This document shows positions 6,813 through 53,614 of a stretch of DNA of 64,000 bases, piece after piece (the first letter of the stretch is position 1; every line of letters begins with the position of its first letter). The DNA is taken from the NCBI GenBank assembly GCA_000004985.1, contig GG738862.1. One strand, written 5' to 3'. The notes beneath the pieces were generated by a model. It searched no databases and was not told the DNA's origin. It saw nothing but the letters and a program-made list of their open reading frames with translations. The stretch comes from Naegleria gruberi. Taxonomy: Eukaryota. The position numbers and the translations under genes were made by a program.

Positions 6813-8349
6813 ATGAGTGATATTGCAAGCGATTTTGAAACTGTACCAGAACCATACAAGATTAAGGTAGTAGAACCAATTAAATTAATTGCAAGACAGG
6901 AGAGAGAAGTTGCCATTAAGGAAGCTGGCCTCAATCAATTCTTATTAAAATCTGATGATGTTTTCATTGACTTATTAACGGACAGGTAAGTGGTATTATC
7001 TTGTTTCAAACCTATATAAAATCGGAACTTATTCAACTTTATCAATTTGTTACAGTGGTACAGGTGCAATGAGTCAAAACCAGTGGGCTGGGATGATGCT
7101 TGGTGATGAATCATACACTGGAAGGTTTGTTTTCATTTTCTTCTTTTAACCAAATGATGTAATAATAACTATTAATACATAATATGTAATCAGCCGTAAT
7201 TATTATAATCTCCAAAAGAGTGTGGAAGATATCTTGGGATTTAAATACTATTGTCCAACCCATCAAGGAAGAGGTGCTGAAAATATCTTGTTTGGTATCA
7301 TCATTAAGAAGGGTCAATATATTCTCGGAAATTATCACTTTGATACTACAAAGGCACATATTGAATTGAATTCTGGTTTGGCTGTCAATTTAATTCATGA
7401 AAGAGCTTATAACACATCTGTTGAACATCCATTTAAGGGAAATATTGATCTTGAAAAGTTGGAACACTTTATTGTGGAAAAGACTCCAGAAAAGATTGCA
7501 TTCTTGTTAATGACCATCACTTGTAATAGTGTTGGTGGTCAACCTGTTTCAATGGAAAATCTTCGTGGTGCCTATCAAGTTGCAAAGAAGTATAATTTAC
7601 CAATCTTTATTGATGCTGCTCGTTTTGCAGAGAATGCTTACTTTATTAAGAAGAGAGAAGCAGGTTATGAAAATAAGACAATTACAGAAATTGTTTGAGA
7701 AATGTTCTCATACAGTGATGGTTGTACAATGAGTGCCAAGAAGGATGGTCTTGTCAATATTGGTGGTATGATTGGTATTAAGGAGGATGAAGAATTATTC
7801 AAAAAGGTTAAACAAAGATGTGTTCCAATGGAAGGTTTCCCAACTTATGGTGGTTTGGCTGGCAGAGATATGGAAGCTTTGGCAATTGGTATGAGAGAAG
7901 TTGTAGATGAAGCTTATTTGGCTTCTCGTATCGATCAAGTTGAATATTTGGGAAGAAAGTTGAAAGAAGCTGGCATTCCTATTCAACAACCGTTGGGAGG
8001 TCATGCAGTTTTCATCAATGCTAAAGAATTCTTGCCTCACATTCCTCAAACTCAATATCCAGCTCAAGCTCTCTGTGTGGAATTGTATCTTGAGGGTGGT
8101 GTTAGAGCTGTTGAAGTGGGAACTTTATTGGCAGGTAGAGATCCAGAAACTGGTTTGGAAATTTTACCTGAACTCGATCTTTTACGTTTGACAATACCAA
8201 GAAGAGTTTATACAAATAATCACATGGATTGGGTTGCCACTTGCTTGAAGAGAATTGCTGCCAGAAAGGACAGGATTAGAGGGTTGAAGATTGTTGAAGA
8301 ACCACCAATTTTACGTCACTTTATGGCAAGATTTGATTGGGCAGAATAA
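6813..8349 (+). CDS. tnaA: tryptophanase (tryptophan indole-lyase, beta-eliminating lyase family); 3 exons, interrupted by an in-frame TGA at 7696–7698
   Basis: The protein aligns along its whole length to bacterial TnaA. Matching blocks include [15 protein letters not shown]..., [125 protein letters not shown] and [18 protein letters not shown]. Exons are 6813–6985, 7056–7124 and 7194–8349, with introns 6986–7055 (GTAAGT..AG) and 7125–7193 (GTTTGT..AG). Exon 3 restores the conserved ...GS|RNYY... alignment. A TGA stop sits in frame exactly at the position of a conserved Arg (E. coli ...ITRETYKY..., here ...ITEIV*EMFSYS...). The gene is either a pseudogene, a sequencing error (CGA to TGA) or a read-through case. 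Exon 1 start is accurate to ±1 nt. Confidence 0.8.
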
Positions 8350-8990: not shown

Positions 8991-9215
8991 AGAAGACCCT
9001 TAATGAACTTAGCAAATACCTTACCATGGTGGACAAGCTAAAAGTACTATTTTTGAACATTTTGGTAAATTGTGGTTGGTTCTCTTCTAACATGAATACA
9101 GAAGATGTCACATCTCTTTAGAACATCATAAAACTTGACAAGAAAAAATAAGCAAACAAAGCAGATCTGCAAGATTTTGAAAATTAATTTCGGCGGAACT
9201 ATTCATCAAAAAAAC

Positions 9216-10553
9216 ATGGAGAAAAAACTCGAGTCTCTCCAACGAGAAGAAATATTTTCAGATGATATTTGTTTTGAAATAATTTCCATGATTGATGATT
9301 CGTGGTTTATTTTGAATAATTGTTCCTTGATTTCAAAACAATTCTTTAATGTGATCAAGGAACGTTCAAAACTTTTTATTGAATTTAAAAAAAAATTTAC
9401 AGAAAAAAGAATTGAACTATTCACAAAGAGTCAATTTATGAATAGTATTGTTAAAGTTAAATTTTCAACAAATTTGTTTGTCTCTATTGAAAATCACAAA
9501 TTCATAAGTGAAATGAAACAATTAACTTCACTTAATATTTCTAACAATCAAATTAATGATGAAACAGCCAAATCAATAATTGAAATGAAACGATTAACAT
9601 CACTTGATATTGGTGGAAATCAAATTGGTGATGAAGGAATCAAATTAATTAGTGAAATGAAACAATTAACATTACTTGATATTAGTGGAAATAGTATTGG
9701 TGATAAAGGAGTCAAACCAATTAGTAAAATGAAACAATTAACATCACTTAATATTTATAACAACGAAATTGGTGTAGCAGGATCCAAATTTATAATTGAA
9801 ATGAAACAATTAACATCACTTGATATAAGCTACAATGAAATTGGTGATGAAGGAGCCAAATCAATAAGTGAATTGAAACAATTAACATCACTTACTGTTA
9901 GTGGAAATCAAATTGGTGATGAAGGAATCAAATTAATTAGTGAAATGAAACAATTAACATTACTTGATATTAGTGGAAATAGTATTGGTGATAAAGGAGT
10001 CAAACCAATTAGTAAAATGAAACAATTAACATCACTTAATATTTATAACAACGAAATTGGTGTAGCAGGATCCAAATTTATAATTGAAATGAAACAATTA
10101 ACATCACTTGATATAAGCTACAATGAAATTGGTGATGAAGGAGCCAAATCAATAAGTGAAATGAAACAATTAACATCACTTACTATTAGTGGAAATCAAA
10201 TTGGTGATGAAGGAATCAAATTAATTAGTGAAATGAAACAATTAACATTACTTGATATTAGTGGAAAATCAGTTGGTGATAAAGGAGTCAAATCAATTAG
10301 TAAAATGAAACAATTAACATCACTTACTATTTATACCAATGAAATTGGTGTAGCAGGAGCCAAATTTATAAGTGAAATGAAACAATTAACATCACTTGAT
10401 ATAAGCTACAATGAAATTGGTGATGAAGGAGCAAAATCAATAAGTGAATTGAAACAATTAACATTACTTGATATTAGTGGAAATGGAATTGGTGATGAAG
10501 GATCCAAATTTATAATTGGAATGAAACAATTAAAATCACTTGATATTCAGTAG
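9216..10553 (+). CDS. F-box-like / leucine-rich-repeat (RNI-type) protein, 445 aa
   Basis: The N-terminus is F-box-like (EIFSDDICFEIISMIDD..LISKQFFNVIKERSKL). It is followed by ~14 consecutive 24-residue RNI-like LRRs (LTSLDISGNQIGDEGIKLISEMKQ...). First ATG at 9216 with an A-rich context; TAG stop. Confidence 0.8.
   Translation: MEKKLESLQREEIFSDDICFEIISMIDDSWFILNNCSLISKQFFNVIKERSKLFIEFKKKFTEKRIELFTKSQFMNSIVKVKFSTNLFVSIENHKFISEMKQLTSLNISNNQINDETAKSIIEMKRLTSLDIGGNQIGDEGIKLISEMKQLTLLDISGNSIGDKGVKPISKMKQLTSLNIYNNEIGVAGSKFIIEMKQLTSLDISYNEIGDEGAKSISELKQLTSLTVSGNQIGDEGIKLISEMKQLTLLDISGNSIGDKGVKPISKMKQLTSLNIYNNEIGVAGSKFIIEMKQLTSLDISYNEIGDEGAKSISEMKQLTSLTISGNQIGDEGIKLISEMKQLTLLDISGKSVGDKGVKSISKMKQLTSLTIYTNEIGVAGAKFISEMKQLTSLDISYNEIGDEGAKSISELKQLTLLDISGNGIGDEGSKFIIGMKQLKSLDIQ
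9598..10480. repeat. intragenic tandem repeat, 288-bp unit (4 LRRs) x3; first two units near-identical
   Basis: The DNA block tcacttgatattggtggaaatcaaattggtgatgaaggaatcaaattaattagtgaaatgaaacaattaacattacttgatattagtggaaatagtattggtgataaagga... recurs almost base-for-base 288 bp downstream. A third, diverged copy follows. Confidence 0.7.
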
Positions 10554-13492: not shown

Positions 13493-14533
13493 ATGAGCCA
13501 ACAAGAAAAGGAGGAAACAGTGGCACCAACCAAAGAAGAATCACCACAGCCAGTTTTTCCCGATGATGTGATATTTGAAATTATTTCCTTCAATAATGAT
13601 TTTAAATTTACAGTAAGGAGTTGTGCGTTGGTTTCTTCACAGTGGTTTAATGTCATTTTGGAAAGATCAAAACTTTCACTCACACACAACAGTAAAAAGA
13701 AAATTAATGGCCAATTTTTACAGCGTATTGTAGCTGTCAATGGGATGAAAAAATGTGATTGTATTCCATTTCTTGATCAAGTATTTGATCTCAAGAACTT
13801 GACTACCCTTGACGTTAATTGTATGAAAATTAAAGATGAAGGAGTAAAGATAATAAGTGAAATGAAACAGTTGACCAATCTTAATGTAGGCAGCAGTGGT
13901 ATTAGTGTTGAGGGAGTCAAATATATCAGCGGCATGAATCAATTAACTAATCTCAATATAAGCCGCAATAATATACGAGCAGAAGGAGCCCGTTACGTTA
14001 GTGAAATGAAACTATTAACCAATCTTAATATTTATTTAAACGGTATTAGAGCAGAAGGTACCAAATACATCAGTGAAATGAAAGAATTGACTTGTCTTAA
14101 TATAATGAGTAATGCAATTCACGATAAAGGCGCAGAACACCTTCGTCAAATGCCTAAATTGAATACACTCAATATTAATTCAAATAGTATCAGTGTAGAA
14201 GGAGCCAAATTTATTAGTGAAATACAGTCATTAACTAATCTTGATATTGGTTTCAATACTATTGGAGATGACGGTGTCAAATTTATAAGCAAAATGGAAA
14301 AACTAACAAAACTTTATACAATGTACATTAATATTGGAGAAAAAGGAGCCAAACACATTAGTGAAATGGAACAATTAACTAGTCTCAATATTAATTCGAA
14401 TAATGTAGGAACAGAAGGAGCAAAGTACTTATGTGAAATGAAACATTTAACATATATGAATATTTGCAACAACAATGTAGACAAACAATCCCAATTTATC
14501 AAAGATGCTACAGTCTGTTTCATCCAATGCTGA
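13493..14533 (+). CDS. F-box-like / leucine-rich-repeat (RNI-type) protein, 346 aa
   Basis: The N-terminus (DDVIFEIISFNNDFKFTVRSCALVSSQWFNVILERSKL) parallels the 9216 gene. About 10 RNI-like LRRs follow (LTNLNISRNNIRAEGARYVSEMKL...). ATG at 13493; TGA stop. Confidence 0.75.
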   Translation: MSQQEKEETVAPTKEESPQPVFPDDVIFEIISFNNDFKFTVRSCALVSSQWFNVILERSKLSLTHNSKKKINGQFLQRIVAVNGMKKCDCIPFLDQVFDLKNLTTLDVNCMKIKDEGVKIISEMKQLTNLNVGSSGISVEGVKYISGMNQLTNLNISRNNIRAEGARYVSEMKLLTNLNIYLNGIRAEGTKYISEMKELTCLNIMSNAIHDKGAEHLRQMPKLNTLNINSNSISVEGAKFISEIQSLTNLDIGFNTIGDDGVKFISKMEKLTKLYTMYINIGEKGAKHISEMEQLTSLNINSNNVGTEGAKYLCEMKHLTYMNICNNNVDKQSQFIKDATVCFIQC

Positions 14534-24759: not shown

Positions 24760-26539
24760 ATGAACAAACAAATACTGGGCCTTGCTCTCACGCTCTTGCT
24801 CTGTATTTCTTGTAGCGTATTTGCTTTGGACGCAACCGTTTACTATCAAAATGGTAAATATGTTGTTAAAAACGGATATGATTTGCAATCTGGTATTGCC
24901 GCAGCACATTATGATGATAGTTTTGAAGCTAAAGGATGGGATGTTCTCTCTATCGAAACTAATCACTTGACCAAGGATGATATGCAAAGTTATGGTGCTG
25001 GTTATTTGGAAGGTGTATTGACTAGAAAGAGAATTTATAATCACTATGTCAATATGCACACTTATTCATGGGCCAGTACTCCTGATAAGAAAATGCCACA
25101 ATATGTGAGAGATTTCTTTGAATCTCAACGTGCTTGGGTCAGAGATTCATCTGCCAAGTATGCCAACGATCCTTTCTGGCAACAAATCAAGACCGTTTAC
25201 TTGCAAATGGAAGGTCTCGTTCAAGGTTACAATGATGCTACTACTGATGCTTCCGAAAAAATTGATTATGCTAGCATGCAAGTTATGAGCTCTTTTGGTG
25301 ACATTTTCGATATTCTCAATGTCAAGAAGGATTTCAGACCAAACTTTAACAAGATGACTCCTGCTCAAGTTATTCAATTCGCTCAAGACAATGGTCACTG
25401 TTCTGCCTTGTTCAAGGTTACTCCAGATTTCAGTAATATCTACTTTGGACACACATCTTGGTTTACGTTTAGGTAGAGTTTCGTTTGTTTTTGACATTTT
25501 TTGTTATCTAACCATGTGCATTTTGTTAATATTTTACTGTTTATGTCACTTTTCACTTTTTAATTGAATTTTCACACATTCAGTGCTATGACGTAAGTTT
25601 CCTATTGCTGTTTTCTAACCATTAATCTCACGTTAAATTTTCAGTCGTATCTACAAGACTTACACTTTCAACTTCAACAGCAGATTGGTTGCTTCACCAA
25701 AGGTTACTTTCTCAAGTTACCCAGCTAATCTTGCTTCTAATGATGATTTTTACATTACTCAAAGTGGATTGGTTGTTATTGAAACATCTAACAATATTTT
25801 CAATACTTCTCTCTATGATTTGGTTAAGCCACAATCATTGCTCTGTTGGCAAAGAGTTATTTTGGCTAACAGACTTGCTGATGATGCTCCTTCTTGGAAT
25901 GATATCTTCTCTGAATATAACTCTGGTACTTACAATAACCAATTCATGGTTTTGGATACTAAGAAATTCGTTCCAGGTCAACCACTTGCCAAGAACTTGT
26001 TCTGGGTTGTTGAACAAATTCCAGGTAAGGTCGTTGGTGGTGACCAAACTGAAGTTCTTAGCTATGGTTATTGGCCAAGTTACAATGTTCCATTCTATCC
26101 AGAAGTTTTCACCATTTCTGGATATCCTGAAATTTTGAAGAAACCAAATGCTTCTGATATGTTGTCATACGAAACTTGTGTCAGAGCTAACATCTTCAGA
26201 AGAGATCAATATAAGGTCAACTCAATTGATGGAATGAAGAACATACTTAGATATAACAATTGGAAGTATGATCCACTTTCTCTTGGACAACCTGGATACG
26301 CAATTGCTTCTCGTAACGATTTGTCTCCAACTGCTACTGATGCTACAAGAAGCTGCAGTGGTGGTTATGATACTAAGGTTTCCTCAATTCTCGACATTAA
26401 CACTGTCCATATTATCAATGGTCCAACCAGTGTTGATCAACCAGTCTTTGCTTGGAATGGTCAATGCCCTGCCAAGTTCAGCCATGTTGGTTTGAAGCAA
26501 TCTTTCAAATATGATTGGATGACTGTTAAATGGAATTAA
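24760..26539 (+). CDS. phospholipase B-like (PLB/LAMA family) secreted protein; 2–3 exons including a candidate 9-nt micro-exon
   Basis: Signal peptide MNKQILGLALTLLLCISCSVFA. PLB-like family blocks are present across both ORFs (...DNGHCSALFKVTPDFSNIYFGHTSWFTF ... RIYKTYTFNF ... FMVLDTKKF ... WPSYNVPFYPEVF ...). Exon 1 is 24760–25472 with donor GTAGAG. The last exon is 25645–26539, acceptor TTTTCAG, anchored to the ORF. Between them, 25584–25592 (TGCTATGAC) is flanked by CATTCAG| and |GTAAGT. Including it gives ...HTSWFTFSAMTRIYK..., with an extra Ala-Met-Thr. Confidence 0.8.
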
Positions 26540-26617
26540 ATTTTTGATAATTAATTATGATTACAATCTCTTTATTGGTGGTGTAACCTTGAAAAAGATT
26601 GAAAAAATCAGCAACAC

Positions 26618-29600
26618 ATGACTGCAAACATCAACAAGCTTCAGTGCTGGCGGTCTTACTTGTTGATTCTTCTCTCTGTTATCCTTCTCGTTGGTGATGC
26701 ATCACCATTATCTTCATCAGCCCACTCAACATATGTTCGCTATCAGTTTGAAACTCTTGCCGGAAACCTTCAACCAGTTTTTTCTCTGTCATTCAAACAA
26801 ATTCAACAATCCAAAGTCAATCCTGATATTCTCTTCATAGTGTCTGCAAGTGATTCTCTTTACAAGTACAATCAAACAAGTGGAGAAAGGAACCTACTGG
26901 TCGGATGTGATGTGTTATCCTATAACTTGTGCATTAAAGAATCAATGGTAACCAACATTTCCCATCTGGCAACATCTGTTTCTATCTACATTACTGGATT
27001 TCATGTGATGGTTTCTTCTAATGAACAAGTAATTTATATTAGCACCGACCATCAATTGTTTCGAATGGAAAATAAGAATATTACACTCCTTTCGGCAATG
27101 TGGTCGACTAGTGATGAAAATCCAAACTTGGATGGAATGCATATTTCGGATAGTTGGTTTAGGTTTTTAAAATCAGTTGTTGTTGATGAAGATGAGAAGA
27201 CTTTATATCTTGCAGATGGACAAGTTATTAGAAAGTTGGATGTGGAAACTGGTATTTTAAAGTCCATCACAACAACAGGAGATGACCCAGTATCTAAGTT
27301 TGATGGACCTGCCAATCAGACTGTTCTTAAACTGCCACAAAAACTACTCCTTCATAATGGATTTCTTTATGGAAATGATGCATTTTCACTTTTTAAAATT
27401 AATATTCAAAGTGGATGGTTGACAGTAATAACTGGCACGATCAATTATATATTAGGTGTTAATTTTCCAGCTCCAAAATCAGGTGATAATGCTAAAAATT
27501 CAACACTTTTATCAATTCGTGGATTTCACATTATGGAGGATGATTCCATTCTAATAATTTCTGGAAATACTTTTTATCAGATCGATCAAAAAAGTGGATT
27601 ACTAACTATACTTTACAATTTTGAAGAAGCTATCTTTTTGGCAACACCCAATTTGGTATTTTCATTACAAAAGGTTTACAAATTAAATAGATTGAATTGG
27701 TCTATGGAAACAATTATAGATTCACATATTGGGGCCATTACGGATGGTTCAATAGCAAAGAATAGAAAATTCTTTGACATTTCAGCACTGACAATGAACG
27801 AAACCACTGGGGATTTACTATTTTCTGATTCATTGTCAAATTACAATCTTTACAAAGTTGATAAGGATGGAAGGTTTTTCACAGTGAATTTACAAATGTC
27901 AAACGTATCTTGTTGGAATTCCTCTATCAGAACTGATAGCTCTTTAACATTCAATCCAGTCTCTTTCCAATTGAGAAACTCTACTTTATATGTTGCCAAT
28001 TCTGGAATGCACAGTTCAATCCAAAAATTTGATCTATCTCAACAAGGATCAAGTTGCTTCTATTCAGGATCAATTTCAAGTGATAGACTTTTGCAACAAG
28101 GGAGTGGACTATCCATGTTGGTTAATAACCCTACTGGATTATATTGTAATATCAATTCTGACGAGATATTTGTTGCCGACACTGAAAACCACAGAATTCT
28201 CAAATATATTTCACATAATCTAGTTCAAGTAATTGCAGGTACTGGAAAGCAAGGTTTTTCAGGAGATGGTGGCTTAGCCATTCATGCTCAACTGAATAGA
28301 CCTCACTCAATTTCCTACGATCGTTCCAATAGAGATCTTTACATTGCAGGTATGTCATTCATTTTCATTATTTTAACATTCATAAAGATTCTGGAAATCA
28401 CAGAATTCGAAAGATTTCTTCTGATGGAACTATTTCTACAATTTTAGGAACTGGCTCGGGTGGATTTAATGGAGATGGTCTCCCTCCATTACAAACGCAA
28501 ATTAATTTCCCTAAAGGTGTTACTTACTCACCCTTTCTGGGAATTGCAATTTCTGATACCTATAACCATAGAGTGAGATTATTTAGAGAAGGAAATGTGA
28601 GCACAATATTGGGAACTGGAACATCTGGAATGAAAGTAGTGGAGGATAATCCAACAGAGACAGAGATTATTTCACCTTTTGGTCTGGTTTGGGCTGAATC
28701 AACTTCATCCCTTTACATAGCTGGTAAGTTTCGAATTTTAGTCGAACATTGACAAATTGTTTCAGATCAATTCAATCACAGAATATTACATCTCCAATAT
28801 CTATATGGTAGTGTAGCAATCATTGCAGGAACCAATTTACCTGGATATAATGGAGATGGCATGAAAGCTAACTTAGCCAAACTATTTCTTCCAAGTTCTG
28901 TAGTTTTGGCTCCTGACAATACAATTCTAATTGCAGACACTTACAATAATTTAATAAGGAAAATTAGTAATGGAATAATTTCTTCATTTGAAACAAAAAT
29001 TGGTCTTGGTCAATCCTATCAAATCAAACAACCGATTGGGTTGTGTTTAACATTATCTGGACCTTTTGTGACAACTGAAAATGCCGTTACCTCATTAAGT
29101 TCAGGCTATACCTCCAACATAATTGGAGGAAATGGAGATGGAATGAATGTTTATTATGCAGATGTTAATCCAACAAGAATGATACTCTCTCCATTTGGAA
29201 ATGAAGGATCAATGATATTTTCAGAATCGAATTCGAATAGAATAAGATATGTCGACAGTAATGGAATCATTTCAACCATTGTTGGTTGTGGAGTATTTGG
29301 ATATATGGGTGATAAATATCCTTCTCAATTTGCCTTTCTTGCTTCACCTACTGGTATAGCACTGAATCCAATAACAAATGATTTAATTTTCTGCGATACC
29401 TCCAATAATCGTATTAGAATAGCTTCTATAAATGAATTAAACGTAGTTGATACGATTGCTGGAACAGGAAATAGCGCATATGATTCAGAAGTATCAGATC
29501 CCTTACTCTCACCACTCAATAAGCCAAGAGTGGTTGCCACATTTAGCAATGGTGACATTGTCATTGGAGACACTTTAAATAATCTATTCAAGATGATTTC

Positions 29601-31431
29601 AAGGAGAGACGGAAAAATTAGAGCCATTGGTATGGGATTTGCAACTGACATGTACGTCACTAAGGATAACATTATCATCTTTTCATCAAGGGAAGAACTT
29701 ATCAAGATGGTTCCTTATTGTGATCTTGGCTATCAATTAGTTGAGAAAAATACCGACTGCATTCCAGTATGTTTTGGATTGACTGGAAATTTGACATGTA
29801 CTAGAAATGGAGAATGCACCTTACCAAATACTTGTAAATGCTCACCTGATTTCACTGGAAAAGCGTGCGAAATTCCAATTTGTTTTGGTTTACCATCCAA
29901 TTCTTCTAATGTTTGTAATAATGGAAATGGAACCTGTGTGTCACCAAATAAGTGCGTTTGTAATGATGGGTTTTATGGAGATCAGTGTCAATATCCTCTT
30001 TGTTTCTCATCATTAATAGAGGAATCATGTGGTGGAATTAATAGAGGAAGGTGTGTCCATAGAAATAAGTGTGAATGTAAGGATAATTTCACAGGTAGAC
30101 AATGTGAATATAGATCTTGTCTTGGAAAGAGTGAAGTTGACCAAAAAGTTTGCAATGGAAATGGTAGGTGTGGATCTGCAGGAAAATGCGAATGTAATTT
30201 GGGTTATTCTGGAGCAGATTGTTCTGATTTGACTCAAGTCTATGCAGTGAGCATCACAGCTGCTGTCATCTTATTAATTTTGATTATTCTAATTCTTGTT
30301 TCTTCTATTTTAGGATGGTTTTTATATAAGAGAAACAGGAGAGATCGAAAGATTATTGAAACAGAACTCTCTCTTGATGAAAGACTCTTGGCAACTACAG
30401 ATCTTGAGCTCTCCCAATTCAGCACAAGTGTTGGTTCAGGATCTCAATCATCCTCAGATGATTCTCCTTCATTTGTCATTCCACTTCACAAGCTAGGAAT
30501 GGATAAGCCAATTCGTAGATTGGGAGAAGGAGGCATGGGAAGCGTATTCATGACCAAATATAATGGAATGATTGTTGCTGTCAAGGTTTTTGATTTGAAT
30601 AATTTCAATATTTCAGAGGAAGATTTTAGAAATGAAGCCATTTTACTAAGTAGAATCAGACACCCAAATATTATAACTTTCTATGGAGTTTCTTCATCTC
30701 CTACGAAACGTTTTATAGTAATGGAATGTTTGGATCAGAGCTTGGAAAAGTTTATTTCTAAATTGGAAACTAAACTAATCAATCTTTCATTAGACCAAAA
30801 ATTGAAAATGTTATTGAATATTGCTAATGGAATTGAATATCTACATACAATGCAACCTAGAAAGATTATTCACCGTGACTTGAAACCTCAAAATATCCTT
30901 CTAGATTCGAATGGAAATTGTAAAGTTTGCGATTTTGGATTAAGCAAATCCATTTCACAAGGAACTATCTCAACAATCACTAATCAATTAGGTACTTTTT
31001 ATTATATGAGCCCAGAAATGTTTGATATTGAAGCTGTCGATCCTACTTACGCTACTGCAATTGACATTTACAGTTTCAGTATTATTGGATGGCAATTATT
31101 ATTCGAAAGCAAAGATCCTTACGTTTACAATAGTCAAGAAGTAGCTAGAAAGTTGAGCTCCAAACTACTCGAACATGTAACCTCCTACCAATTGACCAAG
31201 TTAATTTGTGAAAACAATCACAGACCTGCCATTCCATTCAATTCTCTCAAATCATGTCGTGAATGGTGTTTGGAATTTTTACCCACAACTGAACAAGAAA
31301 ATTATTCAATAGTATTCAAGTTATGCCAACTCATCAAACAATGTTGGCAAGGAAATCCAAAACTTCGACCAAGCATTGAACAAATTGTTGAACAATTACA
31401 AACCTTAGAACAAGAATTTAACAAGATTTAA
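26618..31431 (+). CDS. receptor-type protein kinase: signal peptide, large NHL-repeat ectodomain, ~5 tenascin-type EGF-like Cys repeats, one TM helix, TKL-like Ser/Thr kinase domain; 3 exons, ~1577 aa
   Basis: Exons are 26618–28349, 28388–28723 and 28766–31431. Introns are 28350–28387 (GTATGT..AAG, 38 nt) and 28724–28765 (GTAAGT..CAG, 42 nt). Both interrupt NHL motifs (LYIAG|DSGNHRIRKI; LYIAG|DQFNHRILHL) and restore frame into the ORF starting at 28861. NHL repeats (..ADT.NHRI.K...) are spread over residues ~100–950. EGF-like repeats are CxCxxGFxGxxCxxxxC (residues ~1000–1170). TM helix is VYAVSITAAVILLILIILILVSSILGWFLY. Kinase motifs are GEGGMGSV, VAVKVF, HRDLKPQNILLD, DFGLSK, YMSPE. Confidence 0.8.
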
Positions 31432-42555: not shown

Positions 42556-44166
42556 ATGCAACAACTTCCCGATGAAATTCTTATGACAATTTTTACCTAT
42601 TTACCAGCCGAAGAAATTGTTGGGTGCATTAGTTTAGTTTCTAAATATTGGTATCAAAATTTGTGTTCAGAAATGGATTTAAAAGTAATCCAAGTAAAAT
42701 CACATCAAATTCCTAGCTTTGTAAAATGTCCCATGCTGAAAAAATTAATCAAGTTACATCTGATTGATGAAATTCATTTAGATCACTTTACATTGATTGG
42801 AAAATGTGAATTTCTTGAAAATCTACAGGTTTTAAAAGGAGACTATATGAATTTTGCAAGTCCTAAAGTGTTGTGTTCTTTAGTTTTCAGCAAATTTGCT
42901 ACAAAGTTGAAGAAAATCAAAAATGAATGGTCCTCTGTTTCATATTATAGCTTTGAATGGGCTGAGCAAATACTTCCAAACATAGCAGAAATTACAGGAA
43001 ATCCATTATGGTATCATGTTTTAGGAATGTGTTCTAACAAATTGAATGGATATTTTAAAGCAAGTGATCTTGGATACATACCTTCTCTGATACATCTTGG
43101 AGAGAAATTTGAAGATGTTGATGTAGAAGAAAGTTTTCATTACTATTTAAAAGCAGCAGAATTGGGTAGCCCTAAAGCTCAATATTTCGTTGGTCGGATG
43201 TATCAAATTGGTGAAGGTGTTAACCAGGATTTGAAGGAAGCATTCCAATGGTATTTAAAATCTGCCAATCAAGGACGTGTAGAATCAATATTTCAAGTTG
43301 CAACTAATTATAGAAAGGGAATTGGAATTGAAAAGTCTTTGTCAAAAGCTGAAGAGTGGTACCGAATTGGGGCTTTGAAAAATCATCCTGCTTGTCAATT
43401 TGGTTTAGGGCAAATTTTATTACTAAATGGATCGAGTACAAATTGTAAACAAGCAGTTTCATTCTTGATGAAATCAGCAGAGCAGGATTGCTTTGGTGCC
43501 ATGCATACTATTGGAAAATTATATGAATACGGGATTGGGCTTGATACGGATTTGGAAAAAGCATTCGAGCAATATTTGAAATGTGCAAAAGAAGGAAAAG
43601 ATTTAGAATCTGAATACCTAGTTGGAAAAATGTTAATTCAAGGAAAGGGAACGAAAAAACATTTCTACAGAGGTTTTAAATACCTTGAAAAAGCAGCAAA
43701 TAGATCCCATAGATTGAGTTGCATACTAGTAGGAATTATTTATCGCTTTGGATTAGGAGTTGATAAGGATGTTGAACAATCCAATGAATTATTACAATCA
43801 TTGGATTTAGATATTGATTTGTTAATTGATCCAACAAAGGTTGAGTCAGATTGTACTTGTAATTTGTGTTTCAATACTAAAATCATTAAGGGGTATTATC
43901 ATGGATGTGAGAATGAACAATGCAACTTTGAAATTTGTACAGATTGTTATGAATCAATCATTGACTTACAATGTCAATCATGTAAAGGAAATTCATTTAA
44001 AAAGAAGAATGCCATGTATGAGCTACTACCAACTCTGAATCAGTTATTGGAAAATTCAGAAGAAACCAAACCAAAGAAAAGAAAGAAGAAAAAAAATGAA
44101 AATCAAGATGGAAGGAAATTATTTACAGAATTCATGAATAAGCTTACAACAGCATTACAACAATGA
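42556..44166 (+). CDS. F-box protein with ~7 Sel1/TPR-like repeats and C-terminal Cys-rich zinc-finger-like region, 536 aa
   Basis: F-box LPDEILMTIFTYLPAEEIVGCISLVSKYWY. Sel1 repeats (AxxWYxKAAxQG...AQYxLGxMYxxGxGV). The C-terminus reads CTCNLCFNTKIIKGYYHGCENEQCNFEICTDCYESIIDLQCQSCKG. ATG after an A-run; TGA stop. Confidence 0.75.
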   Translation: MQQLPDEILMTIFTYLPAEEIVGCISLVSKYWYQNLCSEMDLKVIQVKSHQIPSFVKCPMLKKLIKLHLIDEIHLDHFTLIGKCEFLENLQVLKGDYMNFASPKVLCSLVFSKFATKLKKIKNEWSSVSYYSFEWAEQILPNIAEITGNPLWYHVLGMCSNKLNGYFKASDLGYIPSLIHLGEKFEDVDVEESFHYYLKAAELGSPKAQYFVGRMYQIGEGVNQDLKEAFQWYLKSANQGRVESIFQVATNYRKGIGIEKSLSKAEEWYRIGALKNHPACQFGLGQILLLNGSSTNCKQAVSFLMKSAEQDCFGAMHTIGKLYEYGIGLDTDLEKAFEQYLKCAKEGKDLESEYLVGKMLIQGKGTKKHFYRGFKYLEKAANRSHRLSCILVGIIYRFGLGVDKDVEQSNELLQSLDLDIDLLIDPTKVESDCTCNLCFNTKIIKGYYHGCENEQCNFEICTDCYESIIDLQCQSCKGNSFKKKNAMYELLPTLNQLLENSEETKPKKRKKKKNENQDGRKLFTEFMNKLTTALQQ

Positions 44167-51877: not shown

Positions 51878-53614
51878 TTATTTTGAATTATGATAAAAGT
51901 AGAGTTTCAGATTATGATTTTTAAATATTCTAATGATGGCATCAAGTGAACCAGATTCCAATACAACTGGATCATATCTCACTCTGATAATACGAAGTTT
52001 TTCGAATGATGTATTCTGAATCAAAGCTTGTGCACTTTCTGCATCATAAATGGTGACATCCAACCTGGTTACCTTATTCATTGGAGCAGAATACATTGCT
52101 CGAGCCAATGATGTAATAGGAGTGTTCAAAATAATTTCCTTAATATTTGAAAAGTCTGAATCCATAGTGATTGACATTGTCTTGTAATTTTCAATGGTTG
52201 TCTTTGGTATAATATGTAAGGTCAATTTGTCTAGATTTTCAAATGCTGTACCAACTCCAATATCAGTATTAATTAATTTTCCAATAGACCATTTCAAGGA
52301 TAATCTCTTCAAGTGTGTATATGGATAAATTAATAAGTGTTCAATATCATCCACATAAGTACATTGATTAATTTCAAGGAACTCGAGTTGTGGAAATTTC
52401 TCTGGAATCGATACAAGTTCTTCTTGACAGTTTGCGTGTATGTGACGAATGGCTAACGTTTTCAAACCGGATATAGTCAAGTTGTTGTCTAACTCTTGAA
52501 AAACTTCTGGGCTATCTACCCTATCAATATACAGATATTGTAATTTTTCCATCTTCATCTTGAACAATTGTACAAGAAATGCATCACCAAAACCTCCAAT
52601 ATTTAGATAGACAAGGTTGGATTCTTTACCTATAGTAGTGGTAGTATCAGCAAGTGTGATAACTTGAGAAGGGCTTGCTTTCAAACGTAGGTGAGTGAGT
52701 TGAATAAATTTCGAGTTTGAAAAAATGGCAGTAACTATGGATGAAATTTGAGCTACTGGTATAGTGGTAAATTTCAAATCCAATTTTGTAAGTGAAAATA
52801 TTTCAAAGGATGAAGGAAAAGGACCAAGCTTTGTAGATATATTTTCCAATTTCAATTCTGTCAATCTCTCTTTAACAGAAAGAAGAGATTTATATACCGT
52901 ACGTCCAATATTGTTCACAGATACTACTCTTAAATTGTACAAGTATGGATTATTGATGGCATATTTGAGATCTGCTGTTTTTCCAGGAGAAAATGAACAA
53001 TCGTCAATTACAATAGTCTTCAATTTGCTCAAATTTGTGTTATGTACATCAGGTCCAAGAACTGTACAATTCAAATGTCTTATTCTCAAATGAGTCAAAT
53101 TAACACATGCTTTGAATATCCATTGCCATGCTTTAGGTTTCAAATTTGCACGAACATCCAAACAGGCAAGATTCTTAAAGCATGGACTACCAATAAACTT
53201 TTTCAGAACAGTACTCTTGATCGTTTCTTTAATGTAGGCCATAGTCACTCCACATTGTGCTTGTTTCCACTCAGACGAAACACTCATCAAGCGAATGGTT
53301 TGAAAATAGGGTAAATATTGCATAATCTTGGAAACTACATCCGAACAGAATACATTACTACTTTCATTACTGGCATAGAAAGGTGAACCGGAAGTGTTGC
53401 CATCAGAAACCATTGCTTCTTGATCAAATTCTTCAAATTTAATCTTTTTTCGTGATGGTTCGAATTCTTGTTGATGATGATAAACATTGATCACTTCGGA
53501 ATCTGCTTCTTCGTCGTCTATTGTATCCAATTCAATGAATTCTTCATCGTCATCATCGTCAACATTAATTACTTGATGACTTCTCTTTCTGGCTCCATCG
53601 TTGGTTCTGACCAT
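51878..53614 (-). CDS. F-box / leucine-rich-repeat protein, ~579 aa
   Basis: Acidic N-terminus, then an F-box (CSDVVSKIMQYLPYFQTIRLMSVSSEWKQ). Irregular LRRs run to the C-terminus (LTHLRIRHLNCTVLG.., LTELKLENISTKLG..). The ATG at 53614 follows an A-run. The ORF-track extension to 53818 reads as poly-K from that A-run. Confidence 0.7.
   Translation of the reverse strand: MVRTNDGARKRSHQVINVDDDDDEEFIELDTIDDEEADSEVINVYHHQQEFEPSRKKIKFEEFDQEAMVSDGNTSGSPFYASNESSNVFCSDVVSKIMQYLPYFQTIRLMSVSSEWKQAQCGVTMAYIKETIKSTVLKKFIGSPCFKNLACLDVRANLKPKAWQWIFKACVNLTHLRIRHLNCTVLGPDVHNTNLSKLKTIVIDDCSFSPGKTADLKYAINNPYLYNLRVVSVNNIGRTVYKSLLSVKERLTELKLENISTKLGPFPSSFEIFSLTKLDLKFTTIPVAQISSIVTAIFSNSKFIQLTHLRLKASPSQVITLADTTTTIGKESNLVYLNIGGFGDAFLVQLFKMKMEKLQYLYIDRVDSPEVFQELDNNLTISGLKTLAIRHIHANCQEELVSIPEKFPQLEFLEINQCTYVDDIEHLLIYPYTHLKRLSLKWSIGKLINTDIGVGTAFENLDKLTLHIIPKTTIENYKTMSITMDSDFSNIKEIILNTPITSLARAMYSAPMNKVTRLDVTIYDAESAQALIQNTSFEKLRIIRVRYDPVVLESGSLDAIIRIFKNHNLKLYFYHNSK

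Follow-up and report, generated by a model that had tools for sequence, protein, structure and literature searches.

Positions 26618–31431 of a 64,000-nucleotide (nt) stretch of the Naegleria gruberi genome (assembly GCA_000004985.1, contig GG738862.1; hereafter the window) form, with a probability of roughly 0.8, one three-exon gene on the plus strand which encodes a type I, single-pass, TKL-like receptor Ser/Thr kinase. An initial annotation, made from the DNA letters and their open reading frames (ORFs), had already read the locus as one spliced gene, and collinear full-length paralogs as well as domain searches support this. Judged by its sequence, the gene is real and intact. The product of 1577 amino acids (aa) follows the plan of a type I receptor kinase, i.e., a predicted leader, an ectodomain, one predicted transmembrane (TM) helix, positive-inside charges and a C-terminal kinase, with the ectodomain composed of a long array of NHL-type propeller blades, about 950 residues in all, and a stalk of EGF modules.

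The list of ORFs contained two long ones on the plus strand of the locus, 26618–28447 (609 aa) and 28861–31431 (856 aa), and the DNA between them was read for introns. Joining 26618–28349, 28388–28723 and 28766–31431 yields an ORF of 1577 codons plus stop (4734 nt) which has no internal stop. The coordinates, the intron lengths of 38 and 42 nt and the product size of about 1577 aa given initially were thus all correct. Exon 1 (26618–28349) starts at the first ATG after a stop and covers codons 1–577 and the first base of codon 578. Intron 1 (28350–28387; 38 nt, GTATGT..AAAG) is a phase 1 intron within the Asp578 codon of LYIA|DSGNHRI, and intron 2 (28724–28765; 42 nt, GTAAGT..TCAG) interrupts, in phase 1 as well, the Asp690 codon of LYIA|DQFNHRI. 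Between them, exon 2 (28388–28723, 336 nt) comprises 112 codons and exactly two NHL blades, and exon 3 (28766–31431) ends with a TAA stop at 31429–31431. The NHL cores LYIADSGNHRIRK and LYIADQFNHRILH are intact once introns 1 and 2 are removed. Since 38 is not divisible by 3, retention of intron 1 shifts the frame, which then stops at 28447; retention of intron 2 brings in an in-frame TGA. The opposite strand of the locus holds short ORFs only (at most 126 aa).

The C-terminal part of the product is a protein kinase domain (residues 1272–1566; 30511–31395, plus strand). It matches Pfam Pkinase with an E-value of 6e-48 (163.9 bits, cut-off 31.7) and PK_Tyr_Ser-Thr with 2e-43 (148.9 bits). We located the motifs GEGGMGSV (residues 1276–1283), VAVK (1293–1296), HRDLKPQN (1392–1399), DFG (1412–1414), MSPE (1437–1440), DIYSF (1456–1460) and CWQGNPKLRPS (1549–1559), together with NEAILL, which provides the alpha-C Glu. 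The catalytic motifs are invariant in an alignment of six family members. As every catalytic motif of the protein kinase superfamily is present, the domain is, by its residues, probably catalytically competent. It is an RD kinase in which a Ser/Thr-type catalytic loop, HRDLKPQN, is paired with a subdomain XI sequence of the TK/TKL type, CW..P..RP. The top matches of a PDB sequence search were all TKL kinases, i.e., CTR1 (7e-31), LysM receptor-like kinases (RLKs) including CERK1 (approx. 1e-29), ZAK, Roco4, TAK1, SOBIR1, DLK and RIPK, and the first match outside this group was CDK1 (1.5e-24), with EphA3 at 7.6e-24. The complete TKL-like kinase proposed initially from VAVK, HRDLKPQN, DFG and SPE is therefore borne out in its motifs and its best PDB matches. 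The scores of CTR1 and the LysM-RLKs, which in this best-match ranking lie within a factor of about 100, are too close for any named TKL family to be assigned. The C-lobe has family-specific insertions (residues ~1470–1548; 31105–31341): they flank a conserved RPxIPF...C..WC stretch in all kinases of the family and come with two invariant cytoplasmic cysteines. The alignment with CTR1 leaves residues ~1470–1548 unaligned. Between TM helix and kinase lies a Ser-rich juxtamembrane segment (residues 1211–1271; 30328–30510, plus strand).

The ectodomain begins with a region (residues 29–179; 26702–27154, plus strand) in which no Pfam match was found, which is modelled at a pLDDT of about 30 and which is the most divergent part of the protein. 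The predicted array of beta-propeller blades follows at residues ~180–980 (27155–29637, plus strand), as delimited by AlphaFold2, Foldseek and BLASTP, and spans both introns. Its canonical NHL blades, eight clear and one degenerate, occupy residues 490–980 (28085–29637, plus strand). Pfam NHL was matched with 5e-31 (105.7 bits, cut-off 20) and TEN_NHL with 3e-24 (86.1 bits, cut-off 27.1), so that the proposed NHL ectodomain has profile matches well above the cut-off. A hidden Markov model (HMM) built from the clear blades of the 1577-aa product detected eight strong blades in residues 490–980, spaced at a period of 56–58 residues (independent E-values of 1e-20 to 1e-28 each), and a degenerate blade at 771–808; further towards the N-terminus it gave only faint matches. 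BLASTP alignments to long NHL proteins start at ectodomain positions 111–202 (protein residues ~139–230) and reach ~940. In the AlphaFold2 model of residues 29–1008 (mean pLDDT 68.7), at least 12 confident four-stranded blades were recognized between residues ~180 and 970, and residues 29–153 and 765–851 were modelled with low confidence. The initial annotation had spread NHL repeats over approximately 900 residues. This holds for residues 490–980, where the motifs are clear, but the blades from ~180 onwards are degenerate and were seen only by BLASTP and AlphaFold2.

Foldseek placed the bacterial teneurin-like protein 9ifo nearest (1e-24), then the NHL propellers of SOQ1 and NHLRC2, and then the teneurins. 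The TM-score of the model, which has two low-confidence stretches, to the six-bladed NHL domain of NHLRC2 was 0.81. A phmmer search of PDB with the blades gave the same nearest protein (9ifo, 1e-66), with weaker matches to SOQ1 (1e-30), teneurin-2 (about 1e-12) and the PknD sensor 1rwi_B (3e-7). Going by these matches, the membrane-proximal half of the predicted blade array is of the bacterial/teneurin NHL type.

The Cys-rich stalk (residues 1008–1175; 29719–30222, plus strand) consists of a two-Cys prelude and four six-Cys EGF modules, which lie at residues 1025–1057, 1062–1097, 1102–1136 and 1141–1175. Pfam reports EGF_2 (2e-15, above the cut-off), EGF_Teneurin (4e-12; 46.4 bits, cut-off 24.3) and EGF_TEN, the latter with 46.9 bits under its cut-off of 65. 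No tenascin-named family was found in the Pfam scan at E ≤ 0.1, in which these three were the EGF families. The spacing of the cysteines is of a general short EGF kind common to tenascins and teneurins. Of the five tenascin-type EGF modules originally proposed, the Cys-rich stalk as such thus remains, but with four full modules plus the prelude and with a teneurin-type or EGF_2 character according to Pfam. A hydropathy scan of the whole product displayed just two strongly hydrophobic stretches, the N-terminal leader (residues ~8–28) and residues 1181–1210, which agrees with the signal peptide and single TM helix of the initial annotation. The predicted signal peptide comprises residues 1–28 (MTANINKLQCWRSYLLILLSVILLVGDA; 26618–26701, plus strand), and similar leaders are present in the paralogs. 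The predicted TM helix (residues 1181–1210; 30238–30327, plus strand) forms the highest hydropathy peak of the product and is followed by KRNRRDRK. N-terminal to this helix are 15 of the 18 NxS/T sites and all of the EGF cysteines.

Full-length relatives were found in two Naegleria species. N. gruberi itself encodes EFC39453.1 (1508 aa; 53% identity), which is named ‘serine/threonine protein kinase’, and EFC45236.1 (1555 aa; 35% identity; same domain order). The N. lovaniensis protein XP_044551476 (C9374_001816; 1239 aa; 31% identity) has the same domain order with fewer EGF modules. A profile of the region from the TM helix to the C-terminus additionally recovered shorter models. These are EFC45541, which is the public model of this very locus; the N. 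gruberi models EFC46875 (EFC46875.1, 303 aa, kinase only) and EFC35529 (EFC35529.1, 546 aa, last blades, EGF and kinase) and the kinase-only FDP41_004241 of N. fowleri (279 aa), with kinase domains 38–75% identical to that of the 1577-aa product; and the environmental proteins P0128, P0409 and P0410 (511–809 aa), which combine NHL and/or EGF with a kinase and come from AT-rich contigs or from an unknown source. The NHL-EGF receptor kinase family therefore has at least five loci in N. gruberi, and members in N. lovaniensis and N. fowleri. An exhaustive search of representative sequences was dominated by giant NHL/EGF repeat proteins, and the link to a kinase was seen in P0354 and P0127 only. 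A kinase-profile scan of viral contigs returned only generic giant-virus kinases with at most 38% identity to the kinase domain, the flanks of which were not checked for NHL or EGF. P0409, which has the order NHL-EGF-TM-kinase, is encoded on a contig (ENA ERZ27237492, k141_535787) beside a DUF4116 ORF and a Viral_Rep-like ORF (662–1021, 6922–7488). Further, the N. lovaniensis protein C9374_012056 (P0008, 1410 aa) has a similar many-bladed NHL array and a teneurin-like EGF stalk, joined to a GAIN-B domain so named by its source and a C-terminal TM helix, and it has no kinase.

Two metagenome contigs, L001 and L002 (ENA ERZ929261 / PRJEB11402), encode proteins 96–99% identical to EFC39453 and EFC45236, respectively. 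We rejected the notion that they represent orthologs from another species, as this identity marks them as the N. gruberi paralogs from other scaffolds; the sample contains N. gruberi or a very close strain. Removing four short introns (45, 42, 46 and 60 nt) from L001 gives a collinear protein of 1560 aa, and L001/EFC39453 is 52.7% identical to the 1577-aa product over 1534 positions, from signal peptide to C-terminus. The EFC39453 model joins IYIAG|DGG and LYVAG|TNSPGY (L001 1662–1829, 2256–2301) and thereby skips 27 and 22 residues of blades; the short introns of 45, 42 and 46 nt in L001 restore complete blades which this model lacks. By region, identity to EFC39453 is 33% in the N-terminal part, 42% in the distal blades, 54% in the NHL blades, 54% in the EGF stalk, 62% in the juxtamembrane segment and 72% in the kinase. 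Such a rise towards the kinase, with the lowest value at the membrane-distal end, is the pattern to be expected of receptors which keep their signalling and vary their recognition.

Only one public model is tied to the locus, namely EFC45541.1 (XP_002678285, NAEGRDRAFT_32831, D2VBV8; 270 aa; 30568–31431, plus strand). Its first residue is Met1291, so that the Gly-rich loop is left out, and another 17 residues (VSSSPTKRFIVMECLDQ) are lost to a false intron. The model is identical to 253 residues of the 1577-aa product and misses more than 1300, including the whole ectodomain. EFC45541 is accordingly a truncated kinase fragment, and the public N. gruberi annotation is wrong at this locus. This model was recovered by the family profile only; in word-indexed searches with the full-length and C-terminal sequences, bacterial NHL proteins and generic kinases filled the results. 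Absence from the word-indexed homology searches carries no weight, as both EFC45541 and the N. lovaniensis homolog were missed there and came up with a family profile or in the exhaustive search. In the literature, we found no description of NHL-EGF receptor kinases from Naegleria or other eukaryotes, in a search outside of which the N. gruberi genome paper lies, so that an earlier mention is possible. The initial view that NHL ectodomains on receptor kinases are uncommon is right for described proteins, but they form a multigene family in Naegleria and have a bacterial precedent in PknD. The architecture is that of a small, lineage-specific Naegleria family, present in databases as uncharacterised and often truncated or mis-spliced predictions.

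Could the locus instead hold two or three separate genes, with a secreted NHL protein (26618–28447), an EGF-TM-kinase protein starting at ATG 28861, and intergenic or frameshifted stretches in place of introns? The ORF list with its two long entries (609 and 856 aa) would fit this, as would the public annotation, which consists of the kinase fragment only, the split that a prokaryote-style gene caller made at a paralog locus, and the exon-junction 24-mers, which had no match in the metagenome collection. However, both gaps are bounded by GT..AG, and their removal restores an exact NHL core across each junction. The segment 28388–28723, which lacks a start codon, encodes two perfect blades, the 856-aa product would start halfway through a blade and without a signal peptide, and each of EFC39453, EFC45236 and XP_044551476 is one protein in which the parts follow in this order. 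These collinear full-length paralogs, and splice junctions which restore both the frame and the NHL motif, speak for a single gene, and we regard separate genes as highly improbable. We think just as little of the idea that the locus is a decaying or unexpressed paralog, i.e., a pseudogene of the annotated family members. While the public model is a 270-aa fragment, the ORF of 4734 nt is uninterrupted, the two introns have canonical splice sites, all catalytic residues and EGF cysteines are conserved relative to the paralogs, and the base composition resembles that of the surrounding genome. Besides the missing junction matches, some further points weigh against one gene for a TKL-like receptor kinase as described here. 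Splicing was deduced from genomic sequence and paralogs only, the signal peptide and topology were derived from hydropathy and composition rather than from a dedicated predictor, and the TKL-like assignment follows a best-match ranking and not a phylogeny. The low model confidence of residues 29–153 and 765–851 makes any count of propellers tentative, and ligand, dimerisation, substrates and expression are all assumed by analogy with other receptor kinases.

By the same analogy, the protein likely functions as a ligand-activated type I receptor kinase. Its propellers would bind an extracellular ligand or a surface, e.g., prey bacteria, another cell or the substratum. Binding would bring receptors together, as in plant RLKs, animal receptor kinases and PknD. 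The clustered kinases might then trans-phosphorylate the juxtamembrane segment and the activation loop, which is rich in Ser/Thr (SKSISQGTISTITNQLGT), and the signal could be passed on to cytoplasmic targets. A somewhat different view makes the protein mainly a teneurin-like molecule of cell-surface adhesion or recognition, in which the NHL/EGF part mediates contact between cells or with prey or substrate, and the kinase reports this contact. The matches to TEN_NHL, EGF_Teneurin and a solved teneurin-like protein point in this direction, and so do the layout, with membrane-proximal EGF and distal NHL as in teneurins, and the use of a similar NHL and EGF ectodomain with GAIN-B, C-terminal TM helix and no kinase in C9374_012056. 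Nevertheless, the Pfam scan detected no YD shell, FN-plug or toxin domain. Teneurin dimers are linked by a free EGF cysteine, but each EGF module has six cysteines here, and no free cysteine of this kind is obvious. We therefore find a mainly adhesive role doubtful, although sensing of contact and sensing of a soluble ligand are inseparable on these data and this view overlaps with that of a ligand-activated receptor kinase.

The position of both introns within NHL motifs had initially been taken to suggest that the repeat unit was duplicated together with its intron. On this explanation, introns 1 and 2 would be copies of one ancestral intron, and in its favour both have phase 1 and the same motif position, LYIA|D; L001/EFC39453 has a third intron at this position in another blade (IYIA|DTDNHRI); and blades 517 and 686, which bear introns in EFC39453, are mutual best matches (43%). 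However, the intron-bearing blades 574 and 686 share only 29% identity, and each has a nearer relative, 574 in 743 (44%) and 686 in 517 (43%). The two introns are 57% identical, which lies inside the range of 55–65% for all pairs of six introns compared. Intron 1 is absent from the collinear L001/EFC39453, EFC45236/L002 is uninterrupted across a run of blades of 633 aa, and GCAG|A and GCTG|A at the exon ends look like proto-splice sites. Owing to this resemblance, the pattern is accounted for just as well by separate gains at one recurring codon context or by differential loss. Duplication with the repeat unit is thus not supported, and we consider it unlikely.

Intron 2 has a counterpart of 46 nt in L001 at the same position and phase (LYVA|DSFNHRI). 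As position and phase are common to both genes, intron 2 predates the duplication which gave rise to EFC39453; since L001 and L002 match N. gruberi EFC39453 and EFC45236, the intron comparison is one between paralogs. Intron 2 and its counterpart are 64% identical, compared to 57 ± 3.5% in shuffles, 21 of 500 of which reach this value. Both contain the 10-mer TTGACAAATT (28749–28758 and L001 2283–2292) just upstream of the 3′ splice site, and this 10-mer may belong to the branch-site region or be left over from a common ancestor. The remaining introns of L001/EFC39453 comprise the one at an LYIA|D-type motif position, one blade upstream of the intron 1 site, and two elsewhere. Taken together, such a distribution would result if an old repeated intron had been lost differentially, or if introns had been gained repeatedly at a recurring GC[AT]G|AT context. 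N. gruberi introns have a mean length of 203 bp, and a minimum of 30 bp was used for N. fowleri (PMC8296547). With 38 and 42 nt, the two introns are at the low end for Naegleria and in line with the 42–60 nt of the paralog.

The window has a G+C content of approximately 34% throughout, without a compositional break at the receptor kinase locus, and contains no second copy of the gene within its 64,000 nt. Of ten ATG-initiated ORFs of the window compared by exact sequence, three are identical to, or part of, the N. gruberi NEG-M proteins EFC45535 (16200–17336), EFC45536 (18065–19195) and EFC45546 (40947–42410), and the neighbour genes are unrelated to the receptor kinase. Upstream, the last exon of a phospholipase-B-like gene (25685–26539) is separated from the ATG by a spacer of 78 nt (26540–26617), i.e., genes are tightly packed; downstream follows an F-box protein (32003–33274). 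Farther away, LRR_6 proteins, an ABC transporter, an Xaa-Pro aminopeptidase, actin and an RGS protein are encoded. Several LRR_6 or F-box proteins, one of them F-box plus Sel1, are found at 9135–10553, 13493–14533, 32003–33274, 42556–44166 and 51878–53818 and may belong to multi-copy families.

Receptor kinases are well described in animals, plants, a few amoebozoans and algae, but hardly in Discoba, and neither Naegleria nor NHL ectodomains appear in a 2023 survey of protist transmembrane kinases. With this locus, a lineage-specific receptor kinase is available as a clean model over its full length. Its sensing part belongs to the NHL/EGF type which teneurins acquired from bacteria, so that it offers a useful example of how domains are reused for surface recognition. 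Counts of the Naegleria kinome and of its surface proteins may miss such NHL-EGF receptor kinases, as family members of both N. gruberi and the pathogenic N. fowleri are annotated as kinase-only fragments. The architecture is unusual and the correction of the annotation useful, but nothing points to a new mechanism; the gene is a lineage-specific variant of the receptor-kinase plan. As a tentative thought only, heterolobosean amoebae may have built a receptor-kinase class of their own, independently of animals and plants, from a bacterial/teneurin-type NHL array, a teneurin-like EGF stalk and a TKL kinase, and diversified it at the membrane-distal tip to recognise various partners outside the cell, e.g., prey bacteria, kin cells or differentiation cues. 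If this were true, the NHL and EGF ectodomain, which occurs on the non-kinase N. lovaniensis protein as well, would be a general recognition module of Naegleria.

Compared with known systems, the overall plan resembles that of plant RLKs and Raf-like TKL kinases (the LysM-RLKs CERK1 and NFR1, SOBIR1, CTR1). The RLK plan of signal peptide, ectodomain, one TM helix and RD Ser/Thr kinase is repeated in the Naegleria protein, the best solved kinase matches belong to this group (7e-31 to 2e-25), and CW..P..RP is common to both. In contrast, the plant ectodomains are LysM, LRR and others, the Naegleria kinases carry C-lobe insertions of their own, and kinase identity is only about 30%, so that common descent of the receptor configuration would be a conjecture. 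PknD of Mycobacterium tuberculosis combines an N-terminal Hanks-type kinase with a single C-terminal propeller and has no EGF modules. It is likewise a single-pass Ser/Thr kinase with an extracellular, six-bladed NHL propeller as sensor (PDB 1RWI/1RWL; 1rwi_B, E = 3e-7). However, the Naegleria protein has the reversed order, at least 12 predicted blades and a TKL-like kinase, and its NHL blades are far closer to the bacterial teneurin-like 9ifo (1e-66) than to PknD. We therefore rejected a PknD-type kinase, both for the reversed domain order and for a kinase whose closest matches are eukaryotic TKL kinases.

Teneurins and bacterial teneurin-like proteins (PDB 9ifo/9pt5, 6fb3; PMC13018210, PMC5851990) share with the Naegleria protein the NHL subtype, the teneurin-like EGF modules and the layout with proximal EGF and distal NHL. 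The orientation of teneurins is type II, their further domains are TTR, FN-plug, YD shell, ABD and Tox-GHH, and a kinase is lacking (PMC13018210), whereas the Naegleria protein has a predicted type I orientation and a kinase as its cytoplasmic part. RHS/YD, FN-plug, TTR and Tox-GHH families were all without a match in the Pfam scan of the product at E ≤ 0.1. Identity as a teneurin was consequently rejected, based on the type I orientation and the lack of a YD shell, FN-plug and toxin domain. Among the Naegleria paralogs and homologs, the numbers of blades and EGF modules vary; they share with the 1577-aa product the order of signal peptide, NHL, EGF, TM helix and kinase, the kinase motifs, and the C-lobe insertions with RPxIPF...C..WC.

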